A DNA stretch of 64,000 nucleotides, taken from assembly GCF_036507355.1 (NCBI RefSeq), contig NZ_AP027877.1. One strand, 5' to 3'. How positions within the stretch are numbered: the first letter of the stretch is position 1; each line of letters begins with the position of its first letter. This stretch comes from Escherichia coli (lineage in GTDB: Bacteria > Pseudomonadota > Gammaproteobacteria > Enterobacterales > Enterobacteriaceae). The translations under genes and the position numbers were made by a program. This document shows, one piece after another, positions 1 to 16,973 of the stretch. The notes beneath the pieces are model-generated. The model searched no databases. It was not told where the DNA came from and saw only the letters and a program-made list of their open reading frames with translations.

Positions 1-345
1 TGGCGAGAAAGCCGACTCCCGCGGCGAGAAATAAATATGGCGTCGGTCCGGTCAGCGCCTTTCCAGTTAGCACGTTCCAGGGTCCAGCGTTCCACAGCTT
101 CACGCTCATCAAAACGTAACGGGTGAACGGTAGAAAATCCGTTCTTCAGTCGGCGAATATTTATTCGACCTTCATTAAGGTCAAGATCCTGATAATGCAG
201 ATCAAGCAGTTCACTAATACGCATCCCATGCCGATATGCCAACAGAATAAGACAATAATCTCTGGCTCCCGTTGCCCCGTAACAAACCGCCTGCATCATG
301 GCCTGAACTTCTTTACCGGTAAGATAACGACGTTTACTCACAATA
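1..345 (-). CDS. fimE: Type 1 fimbriae switch recombinase FimE, N-terminal part (3' end lies beyond window start)
   Basis: Minus-strand translation from GTG at 345 gives VSKRRYLTGKEVQAMMQAVCYGATGARDYCLILLAYRHGMRISELLDLHYQDLDLNEGRINIRRLKNGFSTVHPLRFDEREAVERW..., matching FimE from memory; tyrosine-recombinase family. Confidence 0.85.
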
Positions 346-818
346 GTAGTACTCCTAACTGAGATATATTTGAATGAATACCTATAGGAAACCTCAATCG
401 GTCAAAATTAGCCCAATAGATAAAAAGATAACCACACACGAAGTGATGTGGCTATCAGTCAATTACATTAAATATCATACAAAAATAAAATATCACTGAT
501 GTGATAACATCTATTTTCATTGATTTGATTCAATATAACAATAGATTGCAGTGGATTAACTTCCAGTTGCTTAAAAAATAAAGGAAAAAGTGCAGAAACA
601 GGAGAGTTTAAGTGATGTGTAAATTTATGAATGATTTTGTTTATTTATTTTGAAGAACATAAACCATTGTATTTTGTATGGATATGGTTAACTTAATGTT
701 TATTATGATAATTAAGAATCATACTTACAATAACATCAATTAATAAATGGTTAATCATTTTTGATATATCGTAAGAATAATGTAGTTTTTAACACCATCC
801 CTGGTATCTCAACTATCT

Positions 819-1421
819 CTATAAAACAGCGTGACGCTGTCGTCCTCTGGCTCTATCCCAGATGCCGTAAAAACGCCCTGCATTGCTGGCGGTATACCAG
901 ACAGTATGACGAATATTGCGATGCCCAAGATAATCCTGGATAAGTCGCGTATCTATTCCCATATTCGCCAAAGCAAAACTACACGAATGGCGTAACATGT
1001 GCGGATGAATCTCCAGTGACAACCCGGCATTACCACCGGAAGTCGAGATAATATGGTAAAACTGTTGCCGAGAAAGCGGATTCCCCTTACGCGATAAAAA
1101 TACCCACTCGCTCTCAGCATGCGGGTACGAAGTACGGATACTCAACCAGTTTTTTAAAGCCTGAACTTCTTTATTCAATAGCGGGTGCGTTGTTGAAAAG
1201 ACTTTTTTTAATCGATGGATATATATACACTTTGCCTTAAGATCAATATCCGAAATCCTCAATCGACAAATTTCACTCGCCCGGAAACCATGAATAAAAC
1301 AAAGCAAAGTCAGACAATAATTACGTGCTGCATGAGGCCCGGTATTTGCTGCTTTAAGGAGTGATTCGATTTCACTATGGGTCAGGAAGTTCCTTTTTTT
1401 GTTATCAGCCTTATTCTTCAT
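819..1421 (-). CDS. fimB: Type 1 fimbriae switch recombinase FimB (tyrosine recombinase)
   Basis: ORF 819..1451(-); internal Met gives MKNKADNKKRNFLTHSEIESLLKAANTGPHAARNYCLTLLCFIHGFRASE... (200 aa), matching FimB; conserved HxxR and Y motifs near the C-terminus. Confidence 0.9.
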   Translation of the reverse strand: MKNKADNKKRNFLTHSEIESLLKAANTGPHAARNYCLTLLCFIHGFRASEICRLRISDIDLKAKCIYIHRLKKVFSTTHPLLNKEVQALKNWLSIRTSYPHAESEWVFLSRKGNPLSRQQFYHIISTSGGNAGLSLEIHPHMLRHSCSFALANMGIDTRLIQDYLGHRNIRHTVWYTASNAGRFYGIWDRARGRQRHAVL

Positions 1422-2436
1422 CGTTTTTCCCTTATAATTACAGACGCGCACTAGCTGTGCTGGGTTAGCAATAATCCAACATTTTTATCCTGATTATGTT
1501 TATAAAAGCGAACGTTTGCTTAATAACTAACGTAAGTGGACCAGTTCTTCTGAGTGAACTTAAATGGAGTAGCAACAGTTAATTATAATAACGTTGCCAT
1601 ACAAACGCCATGCTCTTGCATGCTATGTACCTTTATATATTTATCAATCGGATACGAATCTAATAATAACCCTCATCATTAATGCAACTAATCTTATCTA
1701 TATATCATGTGATATGTTCTGTAACAAGTAAAATCAACATAAAAAATTCAGCAAAATTTAATATTCGTTCAACTAGCCGTCTCACATATGACATTATTAG
1801 TCAACTCCATTTGCCACAAAATGGCTATTTCATGGAGCGCAGTAATTTCTTAGTGGCTATTATCATGCTAATTCTTAGGTCCCTAGCGATTATTCCTGGC
1901 TGATTCGTCAGCTTACGCCATGAGATTGTTACATTCATTTTTATCCTGGAGATATGGGGGAACGCAGGAGATGATTTTTTCATCTACATTCGTTGGTAAA
2001 TATAGCTTTGGTCACTACGACTTAAACCTTCCTCAATCACAGCCATTCGCCGGGCGATACGGCAAACAAACTAAGTGAAACATCATCCTGAAAACACCAA
2101 CATCAACAAGCCTCTCCAGATCGACTTCAGAAGTGACCAGTTACAAGCCACAAACCAAGAAACATATTTCATGATGAGAATTATGCTCAGCCTGATGGCG
2201 GGTAAACACTGATTTTCACCAAGCTCACGGAGTTAGCTTGCAAAGCTTTCCTTGTTTAGACTATAAATAAATTATTTATAAAACAAATAGTTAAACGAAG
2301 ATCTTTAGTTTTTGAAGACCACCGCAAGTGTTCGTCTGGCTTCACATGGCATCTTCCTCTTAGAAAAATATCGACATATTTTGTGACACGAATTGCAAAT
2401 CTGGTTTTGTTGTATGGATTGCGTGATTTTTGTTCT

Positions 2437-2459
2437 GGTATAACAGGTATAAAGGTGCA
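2437..2459. promoter_or_regulatory. Candidate NanR operator (GGTATA repeats) in the fimB-nanC intergenic region
   Basis: Sequence GGTATAACAGGTATAAAGGTGCA: two exact GGTATA hexamers and one degenerate copy at 9-bp spacing, the known NanR repeat pattern; sits in the ~1.45 kb spacer between divergent fimB and nanC. Confidence 0.5.
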
Positions 2460-2875
2460 CCAAGATAGTCAATGAGACAGGGCATCTTGCAATCTATGGC
2501 AAACATCACTTCAGTTCTTTCTCATCGGGTGATGAAAACGCACTTCAGTCTGAAAGGAATATGAAAATGAGATCAACAGACACTCTATTTTATGACTCCG
2601 GGTAAAATGGATTGAGTAAGTGATATAGCTTACGAACATTCAAATCAATTAAACATCAGAAGAGATTTTATACTCAGGTATTTAATCTGGATCTCTGTTT
2701 ATTTAAATAATGTGAAACGAGAATTTTCACAGGAGACCTTATACAAAAAATATAAAATACAGTTACCCGTTGCCAAAGACACTATAAGCCTGGCAAAAAA
2801 TATTACACAACATAAATGCTAATTGTTTATGCGGGCTTTGTATTGCTTTCTGTATCCTACAAATGAGTGAAATTT

Positions 2876-3592
2876 ATGAAAAAGGCTAAAATACTTTCTG
2901 GCGTATTATTACTGTGCTTTTCGTCCCCATTAATTTCTCAGGCTGCGACACTGGACGTACGTGGTGGATATCGTAGTGGAAGCCACGCCTATGAGACTCG
3001 ACTCAAAGTCAGTGAGGGATGGCAAAATGGATGGTGGGCAAGCATGGAAAGTAATACCTGGAATACCATTCATGATAATAAAAAGGAAAATGCCGCACTC
3101 AATGATGTTCAGGTTGAAGTTAATTACGCGATTAAACTTGATGATCAATGGACGGTGCGCCCGGGAATGTTAACGCATTTTAGCAGCAACGGCACACGCT
3201 ACGGACCCTACGTAAAACTGTCCTGGGACGCGACAAAAGATCTTAATTTTGGCATTCGCTATCGTTACGACTGGAAAGCTTACCGACAACAAGACTTATC
3301 TGGTGATATGTCTCGTGATAACGTTCATCGTTGGGATGGATATGTCACTTACCATATTAATAGTGATTTCACCTTCGCATGGCAAACGACGCTATACAGT
3401 AAACAGAACGATTATCGCTATGCAAACCATAAGAAATGGGCGACGGAAAATGCATTTGTTCTACAATACCATATGACGCCCGATATTACGCCATACATAG
3501 AATATGACTACCTTGACCGTCAGGGTGTTTACAACGGCAGAGATAATTTATCGGAAAACAGTTATCGCATTGGTGTGTCATTTAAACTGTAG
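2876..3592 (+). CDS. nanC: N-acetylneuraminic acid outer-membrane channel (KdgM family porin)
   Basis: ORF 2867..3592(+); MKKAKILSGVLLLCFSSPLISQA signal peptide then beta-barrel-like alternating sequence; matches NanC/YjhA from memory. Confidence 0.85.
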   Translation: MKKAKILSGVLLLCFSSPLISQAATLDVRGGYRSGSHAYETRLKVSEGWQNGWWASMESNTWNTIHDNKKENAALNDVQVEVNYAIKLDDQWTVRPGMLTHFSSNGTRYGPYVKLSWDATKDLNFGIRYRYDWKAYRQQDLSGDMSRDNVHRWDGYVTYHINSDFTFAWQTTLYSKQNDYRYANHKKWATENAFVLQYHMTPDITPYIEYDYLDRQGVYNGRDNLSENSYRIGVSFKL

Positions 3593-3611
3593 TAGACAGG
3601 AGACAGTCACA

Positions 3612-4718
3612 ATGAATAAAACAATAACGGCGCTTACTATCATAATGGCTTCATTTGCCGCAAACGCGTCTGTATTACCGGAAACTCCTGTGCCATTTAA
3701 AAGTGGTACCGGAGCAATTGATAACGACACTGTCTACATTGGTTTAGGTAGCGCAGGTACGGCATGGTACAAGCTGGATACACAGGCCAAAGATAAAAGA
3801 TGGACAGCGTTAGCTGCATTCCCTGGCGGACCGAGAGATCAAGCAACCTCTGCATTTATTGATGGCAATCTGTATGTGTTTGGCGGCATTGGCAAAAACA
3901 GCGAGGGCTTGACTCAGGTATTTAATGACGTACACAAATACAACCCCAAAACCAATAGCTGGGTTAAATTGATGTCGCACGCGCCGATGGGCATGGCGGG
4001 CCATGTGACTTTTGTACACAACGGCAAGGCTTATGTTACTGGCGGTGTTAACCAGAATATCTTCAATGGCTATTTTGAAGATCTCAACGAAGCTGGAAAA
4101 GATTCAACCGCTATAGATAAAATCAACGCCTACTATTTTGACAAAAAAGCAGAAGATTATTTCTTCAATAAGTTTCTGTTGTCTTTTGATCCCTCAACAC
4201 AGCAATGGAGTTACGCTGGCGAATCTCCCTGGTACGGAACGGCTGGTGCGGCGGTTGTGAATAAAGGTGATAAAACCTGGCTTATTAATGGCGAAGCCAA
4301 ACCAGGATTGCGAACGGATGCCGTATTTGAACTTGACTTCACCGGTGATAATTTAAAATGGAATAAGCTTGATCCCGTCTCATCACCAGATGGCGTCGCT
4401 GGCGGTTTTGCGGGGATAAGCAATGATTCTCTTATATTTGCTGGAGGGGCCGGATTCAAAGGTTCACGAGAAAATTACCAGAACGGTAAGAACTATGCGC
4501 ATGAAGGCCTGAAAAAATCATATAGCGCTGATATTCATCTTTGGTATAACGGGAAATGGGATAAATCGGGTGAATTATCGCAAGGTCGGGCCTACGGAGT
4601 ATCATTGCCCTGGAATAATAGTTTATTAATTATTGGCGGTGAAACTGCAGGCGGCAAAGCAGTGATGGATTCAGTTTTAATTTCTGTGAAGGATAATAAA
4701 GTCACAGTACAAAACTAA
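3612..4718 (+). CDS. nanM: N-acetylneuraminate mutarotase (Kelch-repeat beta-propeller), periplasmic
   Basis: ORF 3504..4718(+); internal start MNKTITALTIIMASFAANA (signal peptide), repeated GG/Kelch-like motifs (VFGGIG, YVTGGVN, FAGGAGF, LIIGGE); RBS AGGAGA upstream. Confidence 0.85.
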   Translation: MNKTITALTIIMASFAANASVLPETPVPFKSGTGAIDNDTVYIGLGSAGTAWYKLDTQAKDKRWTALAAFPGGPRDQATSAFIDGNLYVFGGIGKNSEGLTQVFNDVHKYNPKTNSWVKLMSHAPMGMAGHVTFVHNGKAYVTGGVNQNIFNGYFEDLNEAGKDSTAIDKINAYYFDKKAEDYFFNKFLLSFDPSTQQWSYAGESPWYGTAGAAVVNKGDKTWLINGEAKPGLRTDAVFELDFTGDNLKWNKLDPVSSPDGVAGGFAGISNDSLIFAGGAGFKGSRENYQNGKNYAHEGLKKSYSADIHLWYNGKWDKSGELSQGRAYGVSLPWNNSLLIIGGETAGGKAVMDSVLISVKDNKVTVQN

Positions 4719-4750
4719 CGCTTCAGGGCCCCGGTAAAGGGGCCCTGCTA
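4718..4750 (+). terminator. Hairpin after nanM (GGGCCCCGGTAAAGGGGCCC)
   Basis: Perfect GC-rich inverted repeat immediately after the nanM stop; no long U-tract, so it may act as an intra-operon attenuator or RNA-stability element rather than a full terminator. Confidence 0.35.
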
Positions 4751-4782
4751 TCAATTTGTCATTTCAATTACGCGAAATTTAT

Positions 4783-5763
4783 ATGAACGCAATAATATCG
4801 CCTGATTATTACTATATTCTTACCGTTGCTGGTCAGTCTAATGCCATGGCGTATGGCGAAGGACTGCCATTACCGGACAGGGAAGATGCGCCTCATCCCA
4901 GAATTAAACAATTAGCGAGATTTGCGCATACGCATCCCGGAGGCCCGTCATGTCACTTTAACGACATTATTCCACTGACTCACTGCCCACACGATGTTCA
5001 GGATATGCAGGGTTATCACCATCCTCTGGCAACGAATCATCAAACACAGTACGGCACCGTTGGCCAGGCACTGCATATAGCACGGAAATTACTGCCCTTT
5101 ATTCCTGATAATGCAGGGGTTCTCATCGTTCCGTGTTGCCGTGGCGGATCGGCTTTTACCGCGGGCAGCGAAGGGACATATTCAGAACGGCACGGAGCCA
5201 GCCATGATGCTTGTCGTTGGGGAACGGATACTCCGCTATACCAGGATTTAGTCAGCAGAACGCGAGCCGCACTGGCAAAAAATCCGCATAACAAATTCCT
5301 CGGCGTATGCTGGATGCAAGGCGAATTTGACTTAATGACCAGTGACTACGCGTCACACCCTCAACACTTTAATCATATGGTTGAAGCCTTTCGTAGGGAT
5401 CTAAAACAATACCATTCTCAGCTTAATAATATTACTGACGCACCGTGGTTTTGCGGCGATACCACCTGGTACTGGAAAGAAAATTTCCCTCATGCGTATG
5501 AAGTTATTTATGGCAATTATCAAAATAATGTTTTAGCCAATATTATTTTCGTCGACTTCCAGCAACAAGGTGAAAGAGGACTGACGAACGCGCCTGATGA
5601 AGACCCGGACGATTTAAGCACGGGATATTACGGTTCAGCGTACCGGTCACCGGAGAACTGGACGACGGCACTGCGAAGCAGTCATTTCAGCACGGCAGCC
5701 CGTCGGGGGATTATTTCTGACAAGTTTGTAGAAGCAATTTTGCAGTTTTGGCGCGAAAGGTGA
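4783..5763 (+). CDS. nanS: 9-O-acetyl-N-acetylneuraminate esterase (SGNH hydrolase)
   Basis: ORF 4756..5763(+); MNAIISPDYYYILTVAGQSNAMAYGEGLPLP... has the GQSN esterase motif; matches NanS/YjhS from memory. Confidence 0.8.
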   Translation: MNAIISPDYYYILTVAGQSNAMAYGEGLPLPDREDAPHPRIKQLARFAHTHPGGPSCHFNDIIPLTHCPHDVQDMQGYHHPLATNHQTQYGTVGQALHIARKLLPFIPDNAGVLIVPCCRGGSAFTAGSEGTYSERHGASHDACRWGTDTPLYQDLVSRTRAALAKNPHNKFLGVCWMQGEFDLMTSDYASHPQHFNHMVEAFRRDLKQYHSQLNNITDAPWFCGDTTWYWKENFPHAYEVIYGNYQNNVLANIIFVDFQQQGERGLTNAPDEDPDDLSTGYYGSAYRSPENWTTALRSSHFSTAARRGIISDKFVEAILQFWRER

Positions 5764-5770
5764 GCGTTCA

Positions 5771-6025
5771 TTAATTTGATTTATTCGCATCCATCAGCGC
5801 TTTTAACTGCTCCGGCGTAAACGGTGGTTTGCGTCGGTGCAACATCGCATGGCAATTAGGGTACACAGGCAGCAAATCATTAACTGGATCCAGCTGGTAA
5901 TCCTCTTTAATGGCTGACAGCGGCACCAGGTGATGCACATGGATAAAGCCTTCAGCGATATCACCATAGATCTTCACCAGATCAACACCGCATATTCCGT
6001 ATGAACCATACGGAGATTTAACCAT
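5771..6025 (-). CDS. Short HNH-motif protein, possibly a C-terminal remnant of a larger HNH nuclease gene
   Basis: 84-aa translation contains HVHHLVP...N...NCHAMLH (HNH-like His/Asn/His spacing) but lacks a clear first CxxC pair; AT-rich; its start overlaps the start of the divergent HUH gene. Confidence 0.4.
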   Translation of the reverse strand: MVKSPYGSYGICGVDLVKIYGDIAEGFIHVHHLVPLSAIKEDYQLDPVNDLLPVYPNCHAMLHRRKPPFTPEQLKALMDANKSN

Positions 6026-6593
6026 GACCTACAAATACAACCCCTTCTGGCAGCAACGTATTCGTGAGACGGTGCGGCACGCACTGAATGTTCATCCCCG
6101 CCTGACGGCATTGCGGGTTGACCTGCGTCTCCCGGATGTACCGGCAGCAACGGACGCAGCTGTGATATCCCGCTTCATCAATGCCCTGAAAGCCCGAATC
6201 GACGCTTACCAGAAACGTAAGCATCGGGAAGGTAAACGCGTGCATCCCACAACCCTGCATTACGTCTGGGCCCGGGAGTTTGGGGAGTGCAAAGGTAAAA
6301 AACACTATCACCTGATGCTGCTGGTCAACCGGGATACCTGGTGTCGTGCCGGTGATTACCGCGCTCCGGAGTCTCTGGCCGGGATGATTAAACAGGCGTG
6401 GTGCAGTGCCCTGGGAGTGGATGTCGGGTGCCATGCCACGCTGGTGCATTTTCCGGCCTGGCCGGCGGTGTGGCTGGCGCGTAATGATGACACCGGCTTT
6501 CAGCAAGTGCTGGAACGTGCTGACTATCTGGCGAAGGAGTATACCAAAGCTCACTGCACCGGTGAGCGCAATTTTGGCTGTAGCCGGAGTTGA
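6024..6593 (+). CDS. YagK/YfjJ-like (inovirus Gp2-type) protein with HUH-like motif, probable rolling-circle Rep-type nuclease
   Basis: 189-aa ORF; KKHYHLMLLV resembles an HUH motif (His-hydrophobic-His-hydrophobics); resembles YfjJ/YagK proteins of CP4-type cryptic prophages from memory. Confidence 0.55.
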   Translation: MTYKYNPFWQQRIRETVRHALNVHPRLTALRVDLRLPDVPAATDAAVISRFINALKARIDAYQKRKHREGKRVHPTTLHYVWAREFGECKGKKHYHLMLLVNRDTWCRAGDYRAPESLAGMIKQAWCSALGVDVGCHATLVHFPAWPAVWLARNDDTGFQQVLERADYLAKEYTKAHCTGERNFGCSRS

Positions 6594-6846
6594 GCACGAC
6601 TGGCGCGCCAATATCCGGCAAACCAAAAGTATGGGTTGTTGTCTGGCGGCAACGATGTATCCACTCGCCCACTGACTGTTTTTTACGTCAGTGTTCCATT
6701 GTGTGACAACCACAGTGCTGTAACAGCAACCAGCCTGCTTTACCCAAACTCCAGTCCAGATTTTAACTGAACCGCCATTCACACCCTGACCACGCTGCCC
6801 GTACCGGGACGGCTGTTGCCTGCGTGTCGTCTGGCGGCTAAGGAAT

Positions 6847-7254
6847 ATGACTATGTACGCAAAATCCTTTATCGCTCTTGATGGCAACGGACGTCTGACG
6901 GGCGCCCGTACTGCACAGGCCGCACCTTATGCTCACTACACCTGCCACTTGTGTGGCAGTGCACTCAGATACCATCCGCAATACGACACTGAACTTCCCT
7001 GGTTTGAACACACTGACGACAGGCTGACAGAGCACGGTCAACAGTGCCCTTATGTCAGGCCGGAGCGCAGAGAAATACAGTTGATTAAACGTCTGCAGCA
7101 ATTCGTACCGGATGCCTTACCCGTGGTGCGTAAAGCCAGCTGGCACTGCAGACAATGTCACCACGATTATTATGGGGAGCAGTACTGCACACACTGCCAG
7201 ACCGGAGGATTCAGTATTCCCCGGACAACTCAGGAGGAAATATGCGAATTCTGA
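6847..7254 (+). CDS. Cys-rich zinc-ribbon protein, paralog 1
   Basis: 135-aa ORF with CHLCG...PWFEH...WHCRQC...YCTHCQTG; same architecture as the next gene. Confidence 0.5.
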   Translation: MTMYAKSFIALDGNGRLTGARTAQAAPYAHYTCHLCGSALRYHPQYDTELPWFEHTDDRLTEHGQQCPYVRPERREIQLIKRLQQFVPDALPVVRKASWHCRQCHHDYYGEQYCTHCQTGGFSIPRTTQEEICEF

Positions 7255-7676
7255 ACTGTTATATGGCGAATGACAGCAAAGGCCATTTTGTTACGGCGAA
7301 AGAAGCTGCGAAGCACAACCGACAGGACGTTTTGTGCTGTGTGTCCTGTGGATGCCCGTTAACACTTCAGCGGGGCAATGACGGACAACCACCGTGGTTT
7401 GAACATGACCAGATGACTGTCGCTGAAAAAATCCTGCTGCGATGTACCTGGCTTGACCCGGCGGAGAAAGAGGCCCGTCGTTTGCATCTGCAGGGCATGA
7501 CGGTTCCGGATTATACGGTGAAGGTGAGAAAGTGGTTTTGTGTGATGTGTGACGAAGATTATGAGGGGGAAAAGTGCTGCCCACGCTGCGGTACCGGGGT
7601 ATACAGCAGGGCGTGGGGGCGGCAGGAGGTGCCGTCGGAAGATGCCAGGGCTGATAATCCGTTACAGAGGCTGTAA
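7242..7676 (+). CDS. Cys-rich zinc-ribbon protein, paralog 2
   Basis: Start ATG at 7242 preceded by GGAGG RBS and overlapping the last codons of paralog 1; CCVSCG...PWFEH...FCVMC...CCPRCGTG. Confidence 0.5.
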   Translation: MRILNCYMANDSKGHFVTAKEAAKHNRQDVLCCVSCGCPLTLQRGNDGQPPWFEHDQMTVAEKILLRCTWLDPAEKEARRLHLQGMTVPDYTVKVRKWFCVMCDEDYEGEKCCPRCGTGVYSRAWGRQEVPSEDARADNPLQRL

Positions 7677-8009
7677 TGGTTGCCTCCGGAGCAGTTTGCG
7701 GTGATGCCTTTCCCGGGAATGGATTGCCAGTGCGGGGACTGTGGAGCTTAATTCCGGTGTTGGTGGCCTTTCCGTTGATTTTATGCCAACAGCCCCCTGT
7801 GACTGACAGGCTGCCTCGTCATTCCATTCGTATCTCCAGTAACAGGGGGTTGTATTGTATTTTATTGTGCCGGTTCAGGTGTGCGTTTCCCGGCGCGTCT
7901 GCACCGGCTTAACCAAATTCAACAGGGATAAAATAGTGGTAAGCGTACAGCCTGAACCGTCTGGTCAGAATCTGACGAATTAGACAAAGTGGTGTCCACC
8001 AAATAAGTA

Positions 8010-8411
8010 GTGGGAACCAAAGTGTCAGATATGCAGAAAAATGTGACTCCCGGCAGGCGAAAAGGCTGCCCTAATTATCCTCCCGAATTTAAACAGCTGC
8101 TCGTTGCTGCCTCCTGTGAACCCGGGATATCCATCTCAAAACTTGCTCTTGAAAATGGCATTAACGCCAATCTGTTGTTCAAATGGCGACAACAATGGCG
8201 CGAGGGAAAGCTGCTATTACCTTCTTCAGAGAGCCCCCAGCTACTTCCTGTGACTCTCGATGCAGCTGCCGAACAGCCAGAATCGCTCGCAGAGGACCCG
8301 GAAACCCTCAGTATCAGCTGTGAGGTAACGTTCCGGCACGGGACGCTCCGCTTCAATGGCAATGTCAGCGAAAAGCTCCTGACTCTGCTGATACAGGAAC
8401 TGAAGCGATGA
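8010..8411 (+). CDS. IS66-family accessory protein (orfA / TnpA-like)
   Basis: 133-aa ORF with HTH-like N-terminus (ISKLALENGINANLLFKWRQQW), typical of IS66 orfA. Confidence 0.7.
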   Translation: MGTKVSDMQKNVTPGRRKGCPNYPPEFKQLLVAASCEPGISISKLALENGINANLLFKWRQQWREGKLLLPSSESPQLLPVTLDAAAEQPESLAEDPETLSISCEVTFRHGTLRFNGNVSEKLLTLLIQELKR

Positions 8412-8755
8412 TCCCGTTACCTTCCGGGACCAAAATTTGGCTGGTTGCCGGTATCACCGATATGAGAAATGGCTTCAACGGCCTGGCTGCGAAAGTACAA
8501 ACGGCGCTGAAAGACGATCCCATGTCCGGCCATGTTTTCATTTTCCGGGGCCGCAGCGGCAGTCAGGTTAAACTGCTGTGGTCCACCGGTGACGGACTGT
8601 GCCTCCTGACCAAACGGCTGGAGCGTGGGCGCTTCGCCTGGCCGTCAGCCCGTGATGGCAAAGTGTTCCTTACGCAGGCGCAGCTGGCGATGCTGCTGGA
8701 AGGTATCGACTGGCGACAGCCCAAGCGGCTGCTGACCTCCCTGACCATGCTGTAA
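8408..8755 (+). CDS. IS66-family orfB (TnpB-like)
   Basis: 115-aa ORF; MIPLPSGTKIWLVAGITDMRNGFNGLAA... is the IS66 Orf2 signature; start overlaps the orfA stop (ATGA). Confidence 0.75.
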   Translation: MIPLPSGTKIWLVAGITDMRNGFNGLAAKVQTALKDDPMSGHVFIFRGRSGSQVKLLWSTGDGLCLLTKRLERGRFAWPSARDGKVFLTQAQLAMLLEGIDWRQPKRLLTSLTML

Positions 8756-8804
8756 ATCTCTTTATCCTGGTTGTCACAGAATAAGCCCGGTAAAATACGG
8801 GCTT

Positions 8805-10190
8805 ATGAACGACATCTCTTCTGACGACATCTTCCTGCTAAAACAGCGCCTGGCCGAACAGGAAGCGCTGATCCACGCCCTGCAGGAAAAGCTGAGCAAC
8901 CGGGAGCGCGAAATAGACCATCTGCAGGCGCAGCTGGATAAACTCCGCCGGATGAACTTCGGCAGTCGTTCCGAAAAAGTCTCCCGCCGTATCGCACAAA
9001 TGGAAGCCGATCTGAACCGGCTTCAGAAAGAGAGCGATACGCTGACTGGTAGGGTGTATGACCCGGCAGTACAGCGTCCGTTGCGTCAGACCCGCACCCG
9101 TAAGCCGTTCCCTGAATCACTACCCCGTGACGAAAAGCGACTGTTGCCTGCGGCGCCGTGCTGCCCGAACTGCGGCGGTTCACTGAGCTATCTGGGCGAG
9201 GATACCGCCGAACAGCTGGAGTTGATGCGTAGCGCCTTCCGGGTTATCCGGACGGTACGGGAAAAACATGCCTGTACTCAGTGCGATGCCATCGTGCAGG
9301 CACCTGCACCTTCGCGGCCCATCGAGCGGGGTATCGCCGGACCGGGGCTGCTGGCCCGCGTGCTGACCTCGAAGTATGCAGAGCACACCCCGCTGTATTG
9401 CCAGTCAGAAATATACGGCCGGCAAGGTGTGGAGCTGAGCCGTTCACTGCTGTCGGGCTGGGTGGATGCATGCTGCCGGCTGCTGTCTCCGCTGGAAGAG
9501 GCGCTTCATGGCTATGTCATGACTGACGGCAAACTCCATGCCGATGATACCCCGGTCCAGGTACTGCTGCCGGGTAATAAGAAGACGAAGACCGGGCGGT
9601 TGTGGGCGTATGTTCGTGATGACCGCAATGCCGGGTCAGCGTTGGCACCTGCAGTGTGGTTCGCTTACAGCCCGGACAGAAAAGGCATCCATCCGCAGAC
9701 TCATCTTGCTTGCTTCAGCGGTGTGCTGCAAGCGGATGCGTACGCCGGGTTCAACGAGCTGTATCGCAATGGTGGGATAACGGAAGCTGCCTGCTGGGCT
9801 CATGCCCGCCGAAAGATCCACGATGTGCACGTCCGCATCCCGTCAGCACTGACGGAAGAAGCCCTAGAGCAGATCGGTCAGTTGTACGCCATAGAGGCGG
9901 ATATAAGGGGAATGCCGGCAGAGCAGCGGCTTGCTGAACGTCAGCGAAAAACGAAACCGCTGTTGAAATCCCTGGAAAGCTGGTTGCGTGAAAAGATGAA
10001 GACCCTGTTCTTCGGCTCTGGCCATGGTGGTGAGCGGGGAGCGCTACTGTACAGCCTGATCGGGACGTGCAAACTGAATGACGTGGATCCAGAAAGCTAC
10101 CTTCGCCATGTGCCTGGCGTCATAGCAGACTGGCCGGTCAACCGGGTCAGCGAACTGCTTCCGTGGCGCATAGCACTGCCAGCTGAATAA
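8805..10190 (+). CDS. IS66-family transposase (orfC / TnpC), probably carrying an internal in-frame deletion
   Basis: 461-aa ORF with leucine-zipper N-terminus, CxxC...CxxC zinc motif and DDE region; about 50 aa shorter than typical IS66 TnpC, with the conserved region before LFFGS.GGERGA apparently missing. Confidence 0.7.
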   Translation: MNDISSDDIFLLKQRLAEQEALIHALQEKLSNREREIDHLQAQLDKLRRMNFGSRSEKVSRRIAQMEADLNRLQKESDTLTGRVYDPAVQRPLRQTRTRKPFPESLPRDEKRLLPAAPCCPNCGGSLSYLGEDTAEQLELMRSAFRVIRTVREKHACTQCDAIVQAPAPSRPIERGIAGPGLLARVLTSKYAEHTPLYCQSEIYGRQGVELSRSLLSGWVDACCRLLSPLEEALHGYVMTDGKLHADDTPVQVLLPGNKKTKTGRLWAYVRDDRNAGSALAPAVWFAYSPDRKGIHPQTHLACFSGVLQADAYAGFNELYRNGGITEAACWAHARRKIHDVHVRIPSALTEEALEQIGQLYAIEADIRGMPAEQRLAERQRKTKPLLKSLESWLREKMKTLFFGSGHGGERGALLYSLIGTCKLNDVDPESYLRHVPGVIADWPVNRVSELLPWRIALPAE

Positions 10191-10428
10191 CACATCCCCG
10201 TCAATACGGCCCTCGCTGTACGCTTACTTTTGTTCGGACTGCTTATGGCCTTTTTCCACTGGTGTAGCAGGAAAGTTAACCGGCTGCCACCATGAGATGA
10301 CGTGTAAACCGTGCAGGCATGTTTTCACGTGGTGACGCTTTCATTGGGGGTCTACGCCGGAACCCCAATATTGTTCACATACATGAATTTGAAAAACTAA
10401 GCGATACTGCTGTCCGTACCTTATAAAC

Positions 10429-11787
10429 TTATTTCAACGCTTCCGGCAGCGTCACAATCCACAGTTCACTGTCAGACTCCGGTTTCTCCAGTGGCTTCAC
10501 TCTGAGGGTCGTTTCAACCTGCTTGTCGTCAAGCGTCAGCTTTCCTTCCGCGTTCACCCGATAATCCTTGAATGTCTTGCCCTCGACCGGATGTTGCATC
10601 GCCACCTTCACGCCAAAGTCGTTATCGTTCGCCACCGCCAGCGTTTTGCTGTCGATCAGCGCCAACCCTTCAGCCTTCTCCTGCTGCCAGCCCAAGGAGC
10701 GCAGATCAACAACCTGCGTTTTCTGCGCAAGGGTAATGCCGCGCTGTGACAGGGTTTTCTCATCATCAAACTCCGGATACTCACCCGGCTTGTCGAAGCC
10801 TGACAGGTCGCTCGCCTTATTGAGATCGACCTCGTAAATCAGGTTACGCATTCTGTTGTTTTTATCTCTTCCCTGTTCGATCAGCAGGATGTGCTGGTTA
10901 TCGAGCGCCACGATGTCTCCGATTTTAGCGTCGCTGTTTTTGCTGTAGGCCGCGCTGTCGATAGGATAACCGTACATCGCGGTTTTTCCGCTTGCCGGAT
11001 CGAAGCTCACCAGACGCGTAAACAGCGCCTTTTTCTTGCTCTTAGCGTCGATATCCAGCGTACTTTGCACGGCGACAATAATACGCCCGTCCGGCATACG
11101 GGTGAGGCCTTCAAAGCCGCGGTTCGCCTGACGCCATTTGAGGATATTTGGCAAACCGCCCGCAATCGCTTTTTCCCCTTCCGCCGCCTGCGGACCGTGG
11201 ATTGCCAGGATTTTCCCTTTACTGTCGATGTTAATCAGGAACGGGCCATACTCATCGCACAGCCAGTAACCTCCTTTACCATCCGGAGTGATCCCTTCCG
11301 TATCCAGCCCGCGATTATCCCCCTTCAGTCTATGTAACGTGTCGCTGAAGGCCACTTCATTGGTGGAGCCAATCACGTCGCTTGCCAGCGGCAGACCGTT
11401 GATCGCGCCTTTATCGTCATGCAGAGGACGGGGATCGATGGCCTCCGCTTTGCCGTTTTGTACACGAATCGTCATCAGCAGCGGCGCGAAATCTGGCGTA
11501 ACGAAAATTTTAGTTTCGTTTTTCCCCTCTTTCGGTGAATCCGCGTTCGGACCGCGATCGGTAATGGTTGCGAATGTCAGGGCATCGCCCTGTTTACCGG
11601 TGAACAGCAGGCCAGAACCTATCCCAACCGGAAGGCCGTTCGGGAATGCACTGGCAAATGCGCCGGCGTAGTTCACGTGCGTGCCTTCTGGAAAACTGAC
11701 GACATAGCGCTCAGCCGTAGGTTGTGCCGCCAGGGCAGAGAAAGAGAGCGTACAACCGATTAGCACGGGAATAATTTTTCTTTTCAT
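10429..11787 (-). CDS. Secreted phytase-like / esterase-like beta-propeller protein
   Basis: ORF 10429..11802(-); signal peptide MKRKIIPVLIGCTLSFSALAAQP; sequence resembles 'esterase-like activity of phytase' family proteins from memory; no catalytic motif verified. Confidence 0.45.
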   Translation of the reverse strand: MKRKIIPVLIGCTLSFSALAAQPTAERYVVSFPEGTHVNYAGAFASAFPNGLPVGIGSGLLFTGKQGDALTFATITDRGPNADSPKEGKNETKIFVTPDFAPLLMTIRVQNGKAEAIDPRPLHDDKGAINGLPLASDVIGSTNEVAFSDTLHRLKGDNRGLDTEGITPDGKGGYWLCDEYGPFLINIDSKGKILAIHGPQAAEGEKAIAGGLPNILKWRQANRGFEGLTRMPDGRIIVAVQSTLDIDAKSKKKALFTRLVSFDPASGKTAMYGYPIDSAAYSKNSDAKIGDIVALDNQHILLIEQGRDKNNRMRNLIYEVDLNKASDLSGFDKPGEYPEFDDEKTLSQRGITLAQKTQVVDLRSLGWQQEKAEGLALIDSKTLAVANDNDFGVKVAMQHPVEGKTFKDYRVNAEGKLTLDDKQVETTLRVKPLEKPESDSELWIVTLPEALK

Positions 11788-12059
11788 ATTGTTAGCATCC
11801 ATAAAGTGAAGATCACACTACACCATAAAGAAGAAACGAGTCAGGAAAATGACATCGAATGGCAACATGCGCGGGCCTGAGGCCAAAGAAATGTAAAACA
11901 CTGTTGTTATTTGTAACAACGGAAACATTTACGGAAATTATTTGTCTTTCTTCGTGATCAAAAATGCTGTGTCTTGTTGGATTGGAGTGATGAGGGCTGC
12001 GTTTAGGAAACGCCCTATATTGTACGGTTGCATTATCGCGGTAGGGGTAATGCACGTGT

Positions 12060-12200
12060 CAGTATGATGAGCTGACCACACTCACGTGGGTGGACTGGTA
12101 TAACAATCGACGATTGCTGGAAAGGCAGGGCCATATCCCACCGGCAGAAGCAGAAAAAGCTTATTATGCTTCCATCGGAAACGATGATCTGGCAGCCTGA
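12060..12200 (+). pseudogene. IS3-family transposase C-terminal remnant
   Basis: Translates to ...QYDELTTLTWVDWYNNRRLLERQGHIPPAEAEKAYYASIGNDDLAA*, the typical C-terminal tail of IS3-family OrfB; the upstream part of the gene is absent. Confidence 0.4.
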
Positions 12201-12298
12201 GTTCACAGATAAAACACTCTCCAGGAAACCCGGGGCGGTTCACTTAGCCGCGTGTCCATTATTGCTGGATAAGATCATAACGAGGTAATGACTCCAAC

Positions 12299-12802
12299 TT
12301 ATTGATAGTGTTTTATGTTCAGATAATGCCCGATGACTTTGTCATGCAGCTCCACCGATTTTGAGAACGACAGCGACTTCCGTCCCAGCCGTGCCAGGTG
12401 CTGCCTCAGATTCAGGTTATGCCGCTCAATTCGCTGCGTATATCGCTTGCTGATTACGTGCAGCTTTCCCTTCAGGCGGGATTCATACAGCGGCCAGCCA
12501 TCCGTCATCCATATCACCACGTCAAAGGGTGACAGCAGGCTCATAAGACGCCCCAGCGTCGCCATCGTGCGTTCACCGAATACGTGCGCAACAACCGTCT
12601 TCCGGAGCCTGTCATACGCGTAAAACAGCCAGCGCTGGCGCGATTTAGCCCCGACATAGCCCCACTGTTCGTCCATTTCCGCGCAGACGATGACGTCACT
12701 GCCCGGCTGTATGCGCGAGGTTACCGACTGCGGCCTGAGTTTTTTAAGTGACGTAAAATCGTGTTGAGGCCAACGCCCATAATGCGGGCTGTTGCCCGGC
12801 AT
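12299..12802 (-). CDS. insB: IS1 InsB (expressed as InsAB' by -1 frameshift)
   Basis: Translation ...[74 protein letters not shown]... matches IS1 InsB. Confidence 0.85.
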
Positions 12803-12996
12803 CCAACGCCATTCATGGCCATATCAATGATTTTCTGGTGCGTACCGGGTTGAGAAGCGGTGTAAGTGAACTGCAGTTGCCATGTTTTACGACAGTGAGA
12901 GCAGAGATAGCGCTGATGTCCGGCGGTGCTTTTGCCGTTACGCACCACCCCGTCAGTAGCTGAACAGGAGGGACAGCTGATAGAAACAGAAGCCAC
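12721..12996 (-). CDS. insA: IS1 InsA
   Basis: [43 protein letters not shown]... identical in character to IS1 InsA. Confidence 0.85.
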
Positions 12997-13065
12997 TGGA
13001 GCACCTCAAAAACACCATCATACACTAAATCAGTAAGTTGGCAGCATCACCGGCCTCGCATTTAA

Positions 13066-13911
13066 TTATTCATTTAAAGATTCAAGAAATGTCCAGCCTT
13101 TATGAGTAACATAATACATTTGTCCTTTTGCCCCTCTTTCAATCACAAAATCAAAGGATAACAGTTCGTTAAGTGCGCCCTCCCAACGGGCTACCTCTCT
13201 AGCCGAACTTCCACCAAAGGATTGATTTCCCGCTTGAATATCCGTGCCACCTAAATGCCTTATCACATAAATTGTTCCGCTATCATCGACACATGCCAAT
13301 TTCAGCAAACTGAGTGCATCGGCGGACAAATTACTTTCTGGCAAAGATTGACTTGTATTCGCATCAGGAGAATTGTTAATGGTAGATATAAGAGAAGACA
13401 AATAAGGGCTACTAGAAATAATTATCGAAAGTTGCCTACGGACTTTGTCTTTGAAATCAGATAAGTCATTAAAAGACTCTATCAATCCCTTTTGCATGCA
13501 CTCAATTTTGAACAATTTAAGAGACTCATATTGTTCTCTATCAAGGCTTTCAGGGGCAACAGGCTTTGAGGAAAAGTAAATCATTGCCGGTTTTCCCGCA
13601 TTCAAATGACGGTGAATTTCTTCGACTGTTCCGCTGGCCTCGTTCCCAGTCGGTGAGCCTAGACGAGTCCAAAACACACCGATTAATAAATCACAATCTA
13701 CTAATAATCTTTGATTAATCAACTCCTGAGGCCTAACTCCTAATTCGGGTGATGTATGAGTTTCCCATCCAATTGGTGTCAACATTACTTTTGAACGAGC
13801 TGAATTTATATCATTCCACTCATGGATCATTTCACGAATGACTTGTCTCTCTTCAGCGACATCACCAGGAGAAGCAATCATTACAGGGATAACAGTTGCT
13901 GTGTAAGCCAT
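13066..13911 (-). CDS. Hypothetical protein with N-terminal DUF4062-like (TIR/STIR-like) domain and uncharacterised C-terminal domain
   Basis: 281-aa AT-rich ORF with GGAGAG RBS; N-terminus VMIASPGDVAEERQVIREMI...CDLLIGVFWTRLGSPTG...SGTVEEIHRHLNAGKPAMIYFSS fits the DUF4062 pattern as I recall it; start lies 14 nt after the recombinase stop; IS1 ends 14 bp past its stop. Confidence 0.5.
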   Translation of the reverse strand: MAYTATVIPVMIASPGDVAEERQVIREMIHEWNDINSARSKVMLTPIGWETHTSPELGVRPQELINQRLLVDCDLLIGVFWTRLGSPTGNEASGTVEEIHRHLNAGKPAMIYFSSKPVAPESLDREQYESLKLFKIECMQKGLIESFNDLSDFKDKVRRQLSIIISSSPYLSSLISTINNSPDANTSQSLPESNLSADALSLLKLACVDDSGTIYVIRHLGGTDIQAGNQSFGGSSAREVARWEGALNELLSFDFVIERGAKGQMYYVTHKGWTFLESLNE

Positions 13912-13924
13912 AAACTCTCCATAT

Positions 13925-14485
13925 TCAATCGGTAATAGCTGCTACAGTCGCTCTTGAAACGCCATATTGACGCGCTAACGCACTGATACTCAAACCGCTA
14001 TTCTTTTTCTCTAAAATCTCTCTACGGGCTTCTGACGCGATTTTAGGAGGTCTGCCCAATTTCTTACCTTCGGCTTTTGCTCGTGATAGTCCCGCCTGAG
14101 TGCGCTCAATCAGCAGATCACGCTCCATCTCCGCAACCGCGGCGAGCATAGATAATAGCAACTTCCCAGCGGCAGAAGTGAGATCTGTGTTACCAAGCTG
14201 GTGGACAAGAACCTTGATATTACGGTCAGCCAGCGCCCTTACCGTTTGCAGGACGTCAATCGCATCACGCCCCAGACGATCAAGCTTCGCTACCACCAAC
14301 GTTTCACCATCGCGGATTTTATTGAGCATTTCAGAAAATGCTTTACGTTGCATTGCCGGAACCTTCCCGCTAACAACATCGGCAAACCAGTAATCAATTT
14401 GCCACCCAGCCTGCCCAAGCTCCAGCCGTTGGTTCTCAGTATCCTGCTGCGATGTCGAAACACGTCCGTAGCCAAAAGTTGCCAT
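13925..14485 (-). CDS. Small serine recombinase (resolvase/invertase family)
   Basis: ORF 13925..14554(-); true start likely MATFGYGRVSTSQQDTENQ (catalytic Ser motif GYxRVSTxxQ) with GGGGAG RBS; C-terminal HTH SISALARQYGVSRATV; about 186 aa. Confidence 0.75.
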   Translation of the reverse strand: MATFGYGRVSTSQQDTENQRLELGQAGWQIDYWFADVVSGKVPAMQRKAFSEMLNKIRDGETLVVAKLDRLGRDAIDVLQTVRALADRNIKVLVHQLGNTDLTSAAGKLLLSMLAAVAEMERDLLIERTQAGLSRAKAEGKKLGRPPKIASEARREILEKKNSGLSISALARQYGVSRATVAAITD

Positions 14486-14507
14486 TGTTATCTCCCCATC
14501 TGACCCC

Positions 14508-14604
14508 TGCCAGAAAACGAGGCCAACATTAGGATGGCCTGCCAGAAAAGCCAAGGCTATTTTTCCAACAGTGTGAAAGCGTGCGATTGGGAGGTGCCAG
14601 AAAA
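14508..14604. repeat. Three direct copies of TGCCAGAAAA upstream of the serine recombinase start; candidate res-like binding sites/operator
   Basis: TGCCAGAAAA at 14508-14517, 14540-14549 and 14595-14604 (spacings 32 and 55 bp), 23-120 bp upstream of the recombinase start codon. Confidence 0.4.
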
Positions 14605-15460
14605 CGGTCGATTGATGACACCATCAAACACTAACAGTGTGCCCCGGCAACGCGCGCCTGCAACGGTTGTCTCGGATGAGCAAAATCTTAGGGTTTTCTC
14701 AGCGACCCCTGACGCGCGGGCACGCACATGCTCACGGGGGCGCGGGCGAGCTATACAGTTGAGGGAGGGGCAACCATAAGCGTGCAATTTTTCAAGCCGG
14801 GGATTCAGCTATAGGCTAACGGTAGAATGCGGCTTGTAGAGGGTTGTGCGCACATACCCAGTACAATCGCATTACTCCACGCGCACAAACCCCGGAGAGC
14901 CGCTTGCGGTGGGGGTTTAAGAGGTACAATTTTTGGTTCGGGTCATAAAGGACTTTTGAGAGCTGACTTAGCTTATTTAAACTGCATTCGTCTTGGCTAT
15001 GGAGACACGAGGCAGCTCAAGTTTTGTTCAAAACTTTGCAATATTTTGGTTCGATCTCATGTTCTCGTGCTAAAGAAATCAGCACTCGATCAAATTTTCA
15101 TTTTTTTTCTGAAACATTGACATACAGCCTAAGCCTTAAGGCACGTAGGGTTGGTCGAAATTTCCCTTTGACAACCTCAATTTAACCTCAAAATCAACCC
15201 TTGTACTGCAAAGAATCCTAACTAGAATGCTGAACATGTAGGGGGGAATCTTATTAACACACCCTATATGTTGTGCTCATGTATAAATGATGGGCATAAA
15301 AAAACCGGAGTCACCTGCGTGAATCCGGTCTATGAAGCATGACCGCCATGAGTCTGCAAACTCATAACGATTGTTAGCCTCACTATCGTTTCTAACGGCT
15401 CGATTGTGCCCGGCTTGGTTGGTTATGTAAACAGTAAGATAAAATCAAAAGGAACGATCC

Positions 15461-16375
15461 ATGCTTATTCAGAAAAAGCGTATTCGAAATATTGATAATT
15501 ACATACCTAACTTTGATGGCCGTGATATCTACATTGCACATTCTTTGCCAGATGCGGGGAAAACGGACTCTATTGGTTTCTCAAGTCAAAGAGCTTTAGG
15601 TGAAGAAGTCCTCCCCAAGATTTTAGGGCCAATAACCAGATTCAATGCTAATGGCAAATCAGTACCTGACAAAACAGCACCTAAAGAAACTGCATACAGA
15701 CAAATTTCATGGACTAGAAAGCAATGGATCGGAGGGGGCGCAACTCAAGAAGTTACTGACACTCGTGAAATTGAGTATAAGCGCTACAAGAGAATCCTCA
15801 CCCCTCCACCAAGCATAGAGTTAAAGATTGTAGAGAATCTTCAAGGGGAGAAGTTGATCATCTCTCCAAAGCTAAGTTTGACAGCTAACAACAAAGAGTT
15901 AGTGGCTCACTGCATTAATCTTTTTTTAGAGCTTTTTGGGTTGTGCGAAACTGTTGACGACCAACTTAATACCATCGTTAAAAGTAAATCTATAAAACTA
16001 AACTGGAGCCTCCTGCCTCAGGGTCAACAGCCTTGGAGTACTATCGGTTCAAAAATCCTTTCAGCTATTAAGATCAGGGGAAAGGGCAATACCGCTGTTG
16101 TTGAAGGCAGACTTGAACTTATCAATAGTAAAAAACCAGATTTCGTAGCGGTTGGGCAAGCTGGGTTCCAAGGCTACGTGATATTTGGGTTCACAGGCCA
16201 AAACATTTACGTGCTAGAAAGCTCACAATGTAATAACGCAACTTATATACTTAACAATAATTGGCAGCAGTTATCCCAGCTAACTAAAGCCGAAATACTA
16301 GACGGAAACTTGCACCATGCCCGTGTCATCCACCGTGTAAACTGGGCAGCAGAAATACTTAAATACTTACCATAA
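15461..16375 (+). CDS. Hypothetical protein (304 aa), AT-rich orphan gene adjacent to leuX
   Basis: Uninterrupted 304-aa ORF with RBS AAAGGAA upstream; strongly AT-biased codon usage; no motif I can assign; ends ~510 bp from the tRNA 3' end. Confidence 0.5.
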   Translation: MLIQKKRIRNIDNYIPNFDGRDIYIAHSLPDAGKTDSIGFSSQRALGEEVLPKILGPITRFNANGKSVPDKTAPKETAYRQISWTRKQWIGGGATQEVTDTREIEYKRYKRILTPPPSIELKIVENLQGEKLIISPKLSLTANNKELVAHCINLFLELFGLCETVDDQLNTIVKSKSIKLNWSLLPQGQQPWSTIGSKILSAIKIRGKGNTAVVEGRLELINSKKPDFVAVGQAGFQGYVIFGFTGQNIYVLESSQCNNATYILNNNWQQLSQLTKAEILDGNLHHARVIHRVNWAAEILKYLP

Positions 16376-16888
16376 AGCGCCGGACGCGCGGGAATGAACC
16401 CCCGCGCACTTTCAAACATACCGCAATAGAATCCATAAAGCCCCGTTGGTGGTAAGACAACAAGCGGAGCCTCTGGCGACTACATCACAGTTATGTCAGT
16501 TAGTGAGGCTTATCAGGATGACCATGTACCCAAGGGGAGCGAGGCCGAACCGCTGGCAGAGCTTGCATATGGTCTGCAAGTACCGTGACCACCATAAACC
16601 TGTTTATCCCCTGCGGCGTCTCGCGACAGCGGCAGAACGGGGGCATCGGGCTAAAATGCGCTTCACTAAAAGTTTTTGGGATTGTTTAGAGACAGTGGCT
16701 ACGTCATAGCTTTCAAGTTGAGTCAGTACGTGTTTGACGCTTGGAACTACACGCCGCTATGAGTTAACATCCCAATTACCACTATCAACCACAGCGGCTT
16801 TTTCAAGGGACATAACAGAGCATTTCTTACAGGCAAAAGAGACAGATTTTATTGTCTAACTACCTGTATTGTAAGGAATTTAGTGACT

Positions 16889-16973
16889 TGGTGCCGAAGG
16901 CCGGACTCGAACCGGCACGTATTTCTACGGTTGATTTTGAATCAACTGCGTCTACCGATTTCGCCACTTCGGC
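16889..16973 (-). tRNA. leuX: tRNA-Leu (CAA anticodon)
   Basis: Reverse complement reads GCCGAAGTGGCGAAATCGGTAGACGCAGTTGATTCAAAATCAACCGTAGAAATACGTGCCGGTTCGAGTCCGGCCTTCGGCACCA: 85 nt, long variable arm, CAA anticodon loop, 3' CCA. Confidence 0.9.

Follow-up and report, generated by a model that had tools for sequence, protein, structure and literature searches.

The nanS-proximal end of the leuX island

The window, i.e. the whole stretch of 64,000 nucleotides that was analysed, is part of an Escherichia coli chromosome and covers the fim/nan region, with fimB on the minus strand (819-1451), nanC, nanM and nanS on the plus strand (2867-5763), and the tRNA-Leu(CAA) gene leuX on the minus strand (16889-16973). 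The DNA of interest lies in the variable island that extends from leuX to nanS, at its end towards nanS. There, nanS (4756-5763, plus strand), the gene of a sialate O-acetylesterase that is recognised by PF03629 and by the RefSeq annotations of syntenic loci, converges on a minus-strand open reading frame (ORF) of 84 amino acids at 5771-6025, which begins with an ATG, includes its stop codon in this range of the ORF list, and contains the remnant of an HNH endonuclease gene. This ORF is followed by an intact plus-strand gene of the YagK/YfjJ type at 6024-6593, annotated as 'inovirus Gp2 family' and called the Gp2 gene in the following, and nanS belongs to the only upstream plus-strand transcription unit that faces it.

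The Gp2 gene encodes a protein of 189 amino acids with an HYH motif that matches the full length of PF11726 (profile positions 1-170 of 170, E = 9.7e-48) and is identical to WP_000221545.1. In this it resembles the YagK/YfjJ proteins of P4-type islands and of the cryptic prophages CP4-6 and CP4-57, for which no function was found in the literature. Two tandem, partly overlapping paralogous genes follow (6847-7676, plus strand), the products of which consist of a DUF7828 domain and a C-terminal zinc ribbon (PF25165 + PF11682), and many islands of E. coli have these three genes as a conserved unit. Beyond these are an IS66 copy and a phytase-like esterase gene, and then an IS1 copy (12284-13051). 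At 13066-14554 on the minus strand, a serine recombinase/resolvase-like gene (13925-14554) is directly followed downstream by the gene of a 281-residue protein, the N-terminal 160 residues of which match the PADLOC candidate defence model PDC-S60 (E = 1.7e-26), with no match of this protein among the NCBIfam profiles. In the interval 14554-16973, leuX has no adjoining P4-type integrase gene, and the sole sizeable ORF between leuX and the recombinase gene is an orphan of 304 amino acids (15461-16375, plus strand) that matches nothing in PADLOC or NCBIfam. A scan of 5500-7000 by Rfam E-value gave no RNA family, and NCBIfam profiles found no match in the 84-aa ORF and its neighbours.

A further small ORF of 29 codons (MNAHLSRQNCKIASTNLSEIIPRRAAVLK; 5682-5771, minus strand) has its start in the sequence TAATG, where it overlaps the stop of the HNH remnant, and continues in antisense across the 3' end of nanS. 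Its equivalent is annotated as a hypothetical protein by RefSeq in several strains; in K-12 derivatives, a 'protein YthB' is annotated near the nanS 3' end.

An HNH core behind a foreign N-terminus

An earlier note on this DNA had described the 84-aa ORF as the carrier of an HNH His/Asn/His core, and this core is indeed there: HH 31-32, N57, H59 and H63 fall into invariant columns of an alignment of 15 sequences, 14 of which are full-length relatives, and the catalytic histidines (HH), the asparagine and the distal histidine are thus all kept. The beginning of the range given in that note, 5771, is right, and its end has to be corrected from 6030, which is 5 nt too far, to 6025. The overlap of its start with that of the YfjJ-like gene was also correctly seen: the ATG of the ORF is the reverse complement of the CAT at 6023-6025, and the palindrome CATG at 6023-6026 contains both start codons, which have the two bases 6024-6025 in common. 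An in-frame stop is found two codons upstream of the ATG.

The codons of the ORF come from two sources. Codons 1-10, MVKSPYGSYG, are the antisense of the Gp2 leader, codon 11 (Ile11) spans the joint, and codons 12-84 with the stop are the tail of an HNH endonuclease gene; the peptide MVKSPYGSYGICGVDLVK is part of the predicted product. As the first codon behind the joint is that of Cys12 (5992-5990), which is the second cysteine of the parental CNVC motif, the first cysteine of the CxxC is lost at the junction, in agreement with the earlier remark that a clear first CxxC pair is lacking. The third of the four zinc-ligand cysteines (CxxC ... CxxC) is replaced by Tyr55, the codon of which is TAC instead of TGC (5861-5863, minus strand; changed base 5862) and turns the CPNCH motif into YPNCH, so that Cys12 and Cys58 are all that the ORF retains of the four ligands.

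The Pfam score for PF01844 (HNH, beta-beta-alpha-metal fold) is 18.6 bits and therefore below the gathering threshold of 21.4, with a match only to profile positions 13-47, the C-terminal two thirds. An intact E. coli allele (P0016) likewise scores below the threshold (18.0 bits), and a relative (P0050) scores above it (29.9 bits). Even with a sub-threshold score, the HNH likeness of the ORF evidently is not due to chance, because 5771-5994 matches the 3' end of an intact HNH gene by 100%.

The parent gene and its family

The remnant (5771-5994, minus strand) corresponds in the family alignment to residues 144-216 and the stop of a 216-aa protein with a head domain and an HNH domain. It is identical in 224 of 224 nucleotides to the allele of strain E2 and in 223 of 224 to that of strain H3, and all 73 residues agree with the intact E2 protein. 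An intact gene of 216 codons is found in the strains H3, E2, E01, EA2, MB20 and STEC384. The alignment with full-length homologues, which had been proposed earlier as a check for a missing N-terminus, shows that 143 N-terminal codons are absent from the 84-aa ORF. In E2 and H3, the protein is deposited as 'HNH endonuclease' (WP_001037966.1 / WP_001037967.1; 216 aa), its last 73 residues and stop are those of the window, the tyrosine included, and its gene is found in the distal end region of the leuX island, beside nanS and convergent with it like the remnant. In contrast to these alleles, the window lacks codons 1-143 with the head-like domain, the linker and the first cysteine of the CxxC, and has instead 11 codons without relation to them, which stem from the Gp2 leader read in antisense.

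With the E2348/69 allele as query, 2,494 relatives were found, and those of normal architecture are nearly all 205-217 amino acids long, with an N-terminal PF26345 domain and an HNH domain; they are often annotated as '5-methylcytosine-specific restriction enzyme A' or 'HNH endonuclease'. The family motif in the alignment is C-x-x-C-x-x-D ... GFIHVHH ... DP..DL.PVCPNCHAMLH. As the 84-aa ORF starts at the equivalent of residue 144 of 216, it has no head domain, and as its descent from the family (PF26345 + PF01844) is evident from the identities given above, it is to be classed by its composition as a fragment of a family member and not as a member. Small HNH homologues of the same size with the same overlap of starts, which by the earlier note would have refuted its interpretation, were looked for and not found, and the remaining short proteins in its 90% cluster, of 68, 75 and 94 amino acids, are truncated in other ways.

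These data bear on the idea that the ORF is a stand-alone mini-HNH nuclease of 84 residues that is expressed from a promoter inside the Gp2 gene, in antisense to it. The open frame, the retained HH/N/H residues and the GenBank annotation of the ORF as a hypothetical protein fit this idea. Small single-domain HNH proteins of about 100 amino acids are known in phages and are a precedent for such a protein. However, codons 1-10 are the antisense of another gene's leader and codon 11 lies across the joint, two of the four zinc ligands are gone, relatives of normal architecture all have 205-217 residues, the exact protein is found on one contig among about 15 billion proteins, and neither a promoter-like site nor a well-spaced Shine-Dalgarno sequence is present, which altogether makes a functional mini-nuclease very improbable.

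The tyrosine at the third zinc-ligand position is found also in the intact 216-aa alleles of H3 and E2, whereas cysteine is found in E. coli alleles at a greater distance and in every other family member of the alignment, and the Tyr55 of the remnant is thus inherited from the parental allele. In the H3 and E2 alleles, either the zinc site may be dispensable, or the allele may have been crippled already before the deletion.

The parent protein combines an N-terminal domain similar to the ScoMcrA head with an HNH domain. ScoMcrA of Streptomyces coelicolor (PDB 5ZMM) is a phosphorothioate/methyl-dependent type IV restriction endonuclease with a C-terminal HNH domain, as in the intact parent, and residues 24-86 of the parent align with its head domain (29-92; E = 0.0013), a small domain the function of which is unknown according to the structure paper (PMC6224610). 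The sulfur-binding and SRA domains of ScoMcrA are both absent from the parent, and the window remnant has not even a head domain. Matches to the PADLOC type IV mREase models are weak, with E = 1.3e-4 and 3.9e-4 for the parent and 1.8e-3 for the remnant. In E2348/69 (L001 4172-8395), the head-domain + HNH gene and its neighbour are divergent; the neighbour encodes a restriction endonuclease that binds phosphorothioated DNA (SBD + HNH; NF045808, E = 1.9e-131), and McrC/McrB family genes come after it. In this small defence cluster, which lies where the leuX island ends, the domains of ScoMcrA are thus distributed over two adjoining genes.

The deletion junction

Strain H3 contains both parts of the chimera in the same order and orientation. 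Window positions 2501-5994 correspond to 1-3495 of the H3 locus (L004) with 99.5% identity, and 5993-12242 to 8074-14323 with 99.7%, while the 4,580 bp between these two blocks are missing from the window; this size refers to H3 only, and the intervening segment of the true ancestor may have differed. The earlier suggestion of a truncation or fusion junction was thus right, and three-way alignments place the breakpoint within 2 bp at a TA dinucleotide (5993-5994) that is common to both parents, a 2-bp microhomology by which also the BLAST coordinates overlap. The H3 segment that is missing comprises HNH codons 1-143, the remnant of a phosphorothioated-DNA-binding restriction endonuclease gene, remnants of HTH and DUF4942 genes, DUF957 and DUF5983 genes, a CbtA/YeeU toxin-antitoxin pair, two small hypothetical ORFs, and, except for 31 nt, the 199-nt intergenic region in front of the Gp2 gene. 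The HNH gene and the Gp2 region are about 4.2 kb apart in H3, and the gap between nanS and the Gp2 gene, about 4.8 kb in an H3-like arrangement, has shrunk to 260 bp (5764-6023) in the window.

No direct repeats or IS ends were found that link the two endpoints. A homologous or IS-mediated deletion was therefore rejected, microhomology-level illegitimate recombination is favoured, and the event is best described as a microhomology-mediated illegitimate recombination. DNA folding of the left endpoint gave no significant structure (z = -1.1), and the right endpoint lies 2-3 nt upstream of a stable hairpin (5996-6014), which makes it plausible that hairpin-assisted slippage contributed to the deletion. 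Since no mutations are found in either flank in comparison with intact alleles, the deletion must be young, and the remnant is regarded as recent and strain-specific.

Occurrence of the junction

When positions 5600-6700 were used for a megablast search of 5,426 complete E. coli genomes, 5,246 had a match, and in none of the 5,426 did a single place cover 80% or more of the junction-spanning query. The matches comprise either query positions 1-395 or less (nanS and 'HNH endonuclease') or query positions 394-1101 ('inovirus Gp2 family protein'). A 26-nt junction pattern likewise was found neither in the GTDB representative genomes (one per species) nor in 241 million metagenome records. A search for contigs that encode the exact 84-aa protein gave no result, and a cluster look-up gave the single contig mentioned above (BED24016.1, locus tag VEE46_37840, 'hypothetical protein').

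As many of the megablast matches begin exactly at 5993, as a hairpin is adjacent, and as the Gp2 protein is Rep-like, the idea arose that 5993 may be the natural end of a hairpin-bounded Rep/HUH cassette or mobile unit. This was rejected, because in 2,801 genomes the Gp2 upstream region runs unbroken through the breakpoint position; 5993 is merely the point at which the window diverges from all others.

The occurrence in only one record also raises the question of an assembly artefact, in which the source genome would have an intact HNH gene and the 4.6-kb segment, collapsed by the assembler. Mis-assemblies normally occur at long repeats, however, and here the endpoints share 2 bp and no linking repeat; the record is a single contig of 4.64 Mb, and this HNH gene has often been truncated independently elsewhere in E. 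coli, which makes a real deletion nothing unusual. An artefact is therefore highly unlikely.

The Gp2 leader and the signals for expression

The window and the strains HUM3355 and CV839-06 are identical in 601 of 601 nucleotides from 5993 to 6593, i.e. in the leader and the coding sequence of the Gp2 gene. The retained leader (5995-6023, plus strand) was delimited by the identity with CV839-06, HUM3355 and H3 from 5993 onward, and with the junction TA, 31 nt remain upstream of the ATG from the intergenic region of 199 nt that this gene usually has. The hairpin (5996-6014, plus strand) consists of an 8-bp stem and a 3-nt loop (TCCGTATG-AAC-CATACGGA), with an RNA folding energy of -9.9 kcal/mol (z = -3.8). 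Its arms are invariant across strains, and the loop is 5 nt longer in M18 and EC17GD31. It covers three of the four bases of the Gp2 Shine-Dalgarno sequence GGAG (6012-6015), which ends 8 nt before the ATG, and the hairpin may serve to control translation or to bind a protein.

The earlier note had offered a compact bidirectional regulatory unit as the other possible meaning of the overlapping starts, in which these would couple the HNH ORF and the Gp2/YfjJ gene. Both ATGs overlap in the CATG palindrome and a stable hairpin adjoins, which speaks for such a unit, but the population data contradict it: the juxtaposition is found in this genome alone and in no other genome or metagenome that was searched, the Gp2 gene is preceded in the 2,801 genomes by another, conserved sequence that contains a small divergent ORF, and the hairpin is a feature of the Gp2 leader in all of these, to which the HNH side contributes nothing. 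Such a unit has practically no probability left, and the overlap of the start codons is thus seen as a by-product of the position at which the deletion ended.

Promoter and Shine-Dalgarno sequences were called by consensus scans. On neither strand was a sigma-70-like promoter found near the junction, which is at the level of consensus consistent with the earlier expectation that the two genes cannot both have normal promoters. Upstream of the 84-aa ORF, the only purine runs are at -21 to -16 and -6 to -3, which is not the spacing of a Shine-Dalgarno sequence, and judged from these signals the remnant is probably not expressed; it is probably also inactive. In H3, a promoter-like site (TTTACA-16-GAAAAT) is present 137 nt upstream of the Gp2 ATG, within the DNA that is deleted in the window, and the Gp2 gene has thus probably lost its native promoter. 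If so, it could be transcribed only by read-through from nanCMS, and such a read-through is suggested because its own upstream region is gone and because the consensus scan found no terminator-like site between the nanS stop and the Gp2 ATG. In a more far-reaching scenario, the Rep-like Gp2/YfjJ gene would have become a 3' extension of the sialic-acid-inducible nanCMS operon, and at the same time the zinc-poor 84-aa fragment would be weakly translated and keep some DNA-nicking or dominant-negative activity; this combination is very hard to believe on the basis of these data.

Other lesions of the same gene

The HNH gene beside nanS has been broken also in other E. coli strains. In E2348/69 there is a nonsense codon at codon 35 (L001 4172-4960), in CFS3246 a remnant of 35 codons is left (L010 1201-1305), and 19 of 40 matches sampled across the ranking are limited to the same 106 nt as this latter remnant. 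In HUM3355, an IS1 insertion has left 34 nt of the gene (L003 3272-3305), P0002 and P0015 are 75-aa alleles with an in-frame internal deletion and the native MNKLPD start, and K-12 derivatives have retained nothing of the gene. Like the window, these alleles represent inactivations of the same gene at the same locus, and they differ from it and from each other in their breakpoints; none has a fusion to the Gp2 leader or the N-terminus MVKSPYGSYGI. The gene has thus been inactivated repeatedly in E. coli, by at least five independent lesions in the strains compared here, and that it was broken independently in several lineages underlines that it is dispensable.

The IS1 copy of HUM3355 (L003 3306-4074), which is inserted 34 nt into the HNH remnant beside nanS, is 99% identical to the IS1 of the window at 12284-13051. 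IS1 has thus remodelled the same island in closely related strains, in each at another place.

Origin of the 84-aa ORF and its significance

The likely course of events begins with an order as it is still found in H3, with nanS, the convergent 216-aa head-like + HNH gene, about 4.2 kb of further DNA, and the Gp2/YfjJ gene with its 199-nt upstream intergenic region. Illegitimate recombination at a TA would then have joined HNH codon 143/144 to position -31 of the Gp2 gene. By chance, the HNH frame has no stop in the 31 nt of Gp2 leader that it crosses in antisense, and it reaches an ATG that is given as the reverse complement of the CAT in the CATG start context of the Gp2 gene, which has generated the ORF of 84 codons. 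Its product would be without the whole N-terminal domain and without two of the four zinc ligands, and its gene without a properly spaced Shine-Dalgarno sequence and a recognisable promoter. The 84-aa ORF is thus very probably a by-product without function, left when 4,580 bp were recently deleted from the leuX-associated genomic island in a strain of E. coli. Against this speaks that the frame is intact and that all catalytic His/Asn/His residues are kept, by which a residual activity is possible, and that the exchange of Cys for Tyr, being present also in the full-length alleles of H3 and E2, may be tolerated and not inactivating.

The finding is an ordinary one, a routine gene decay of an already known kind at the variable end of a genomic island, and it carries little biological weight. 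Its main value is in annotation: the ORF has been deposited as a 'hypothetical protein' and would be better flagged as a pseudogene fragment, and the apparently overlapping divergent starts should not be taken for a regulatory design. The recurrent loss of the HNH gene may be of interest to those who follow how restriction and defence genes are gained and lost at the leuX island.
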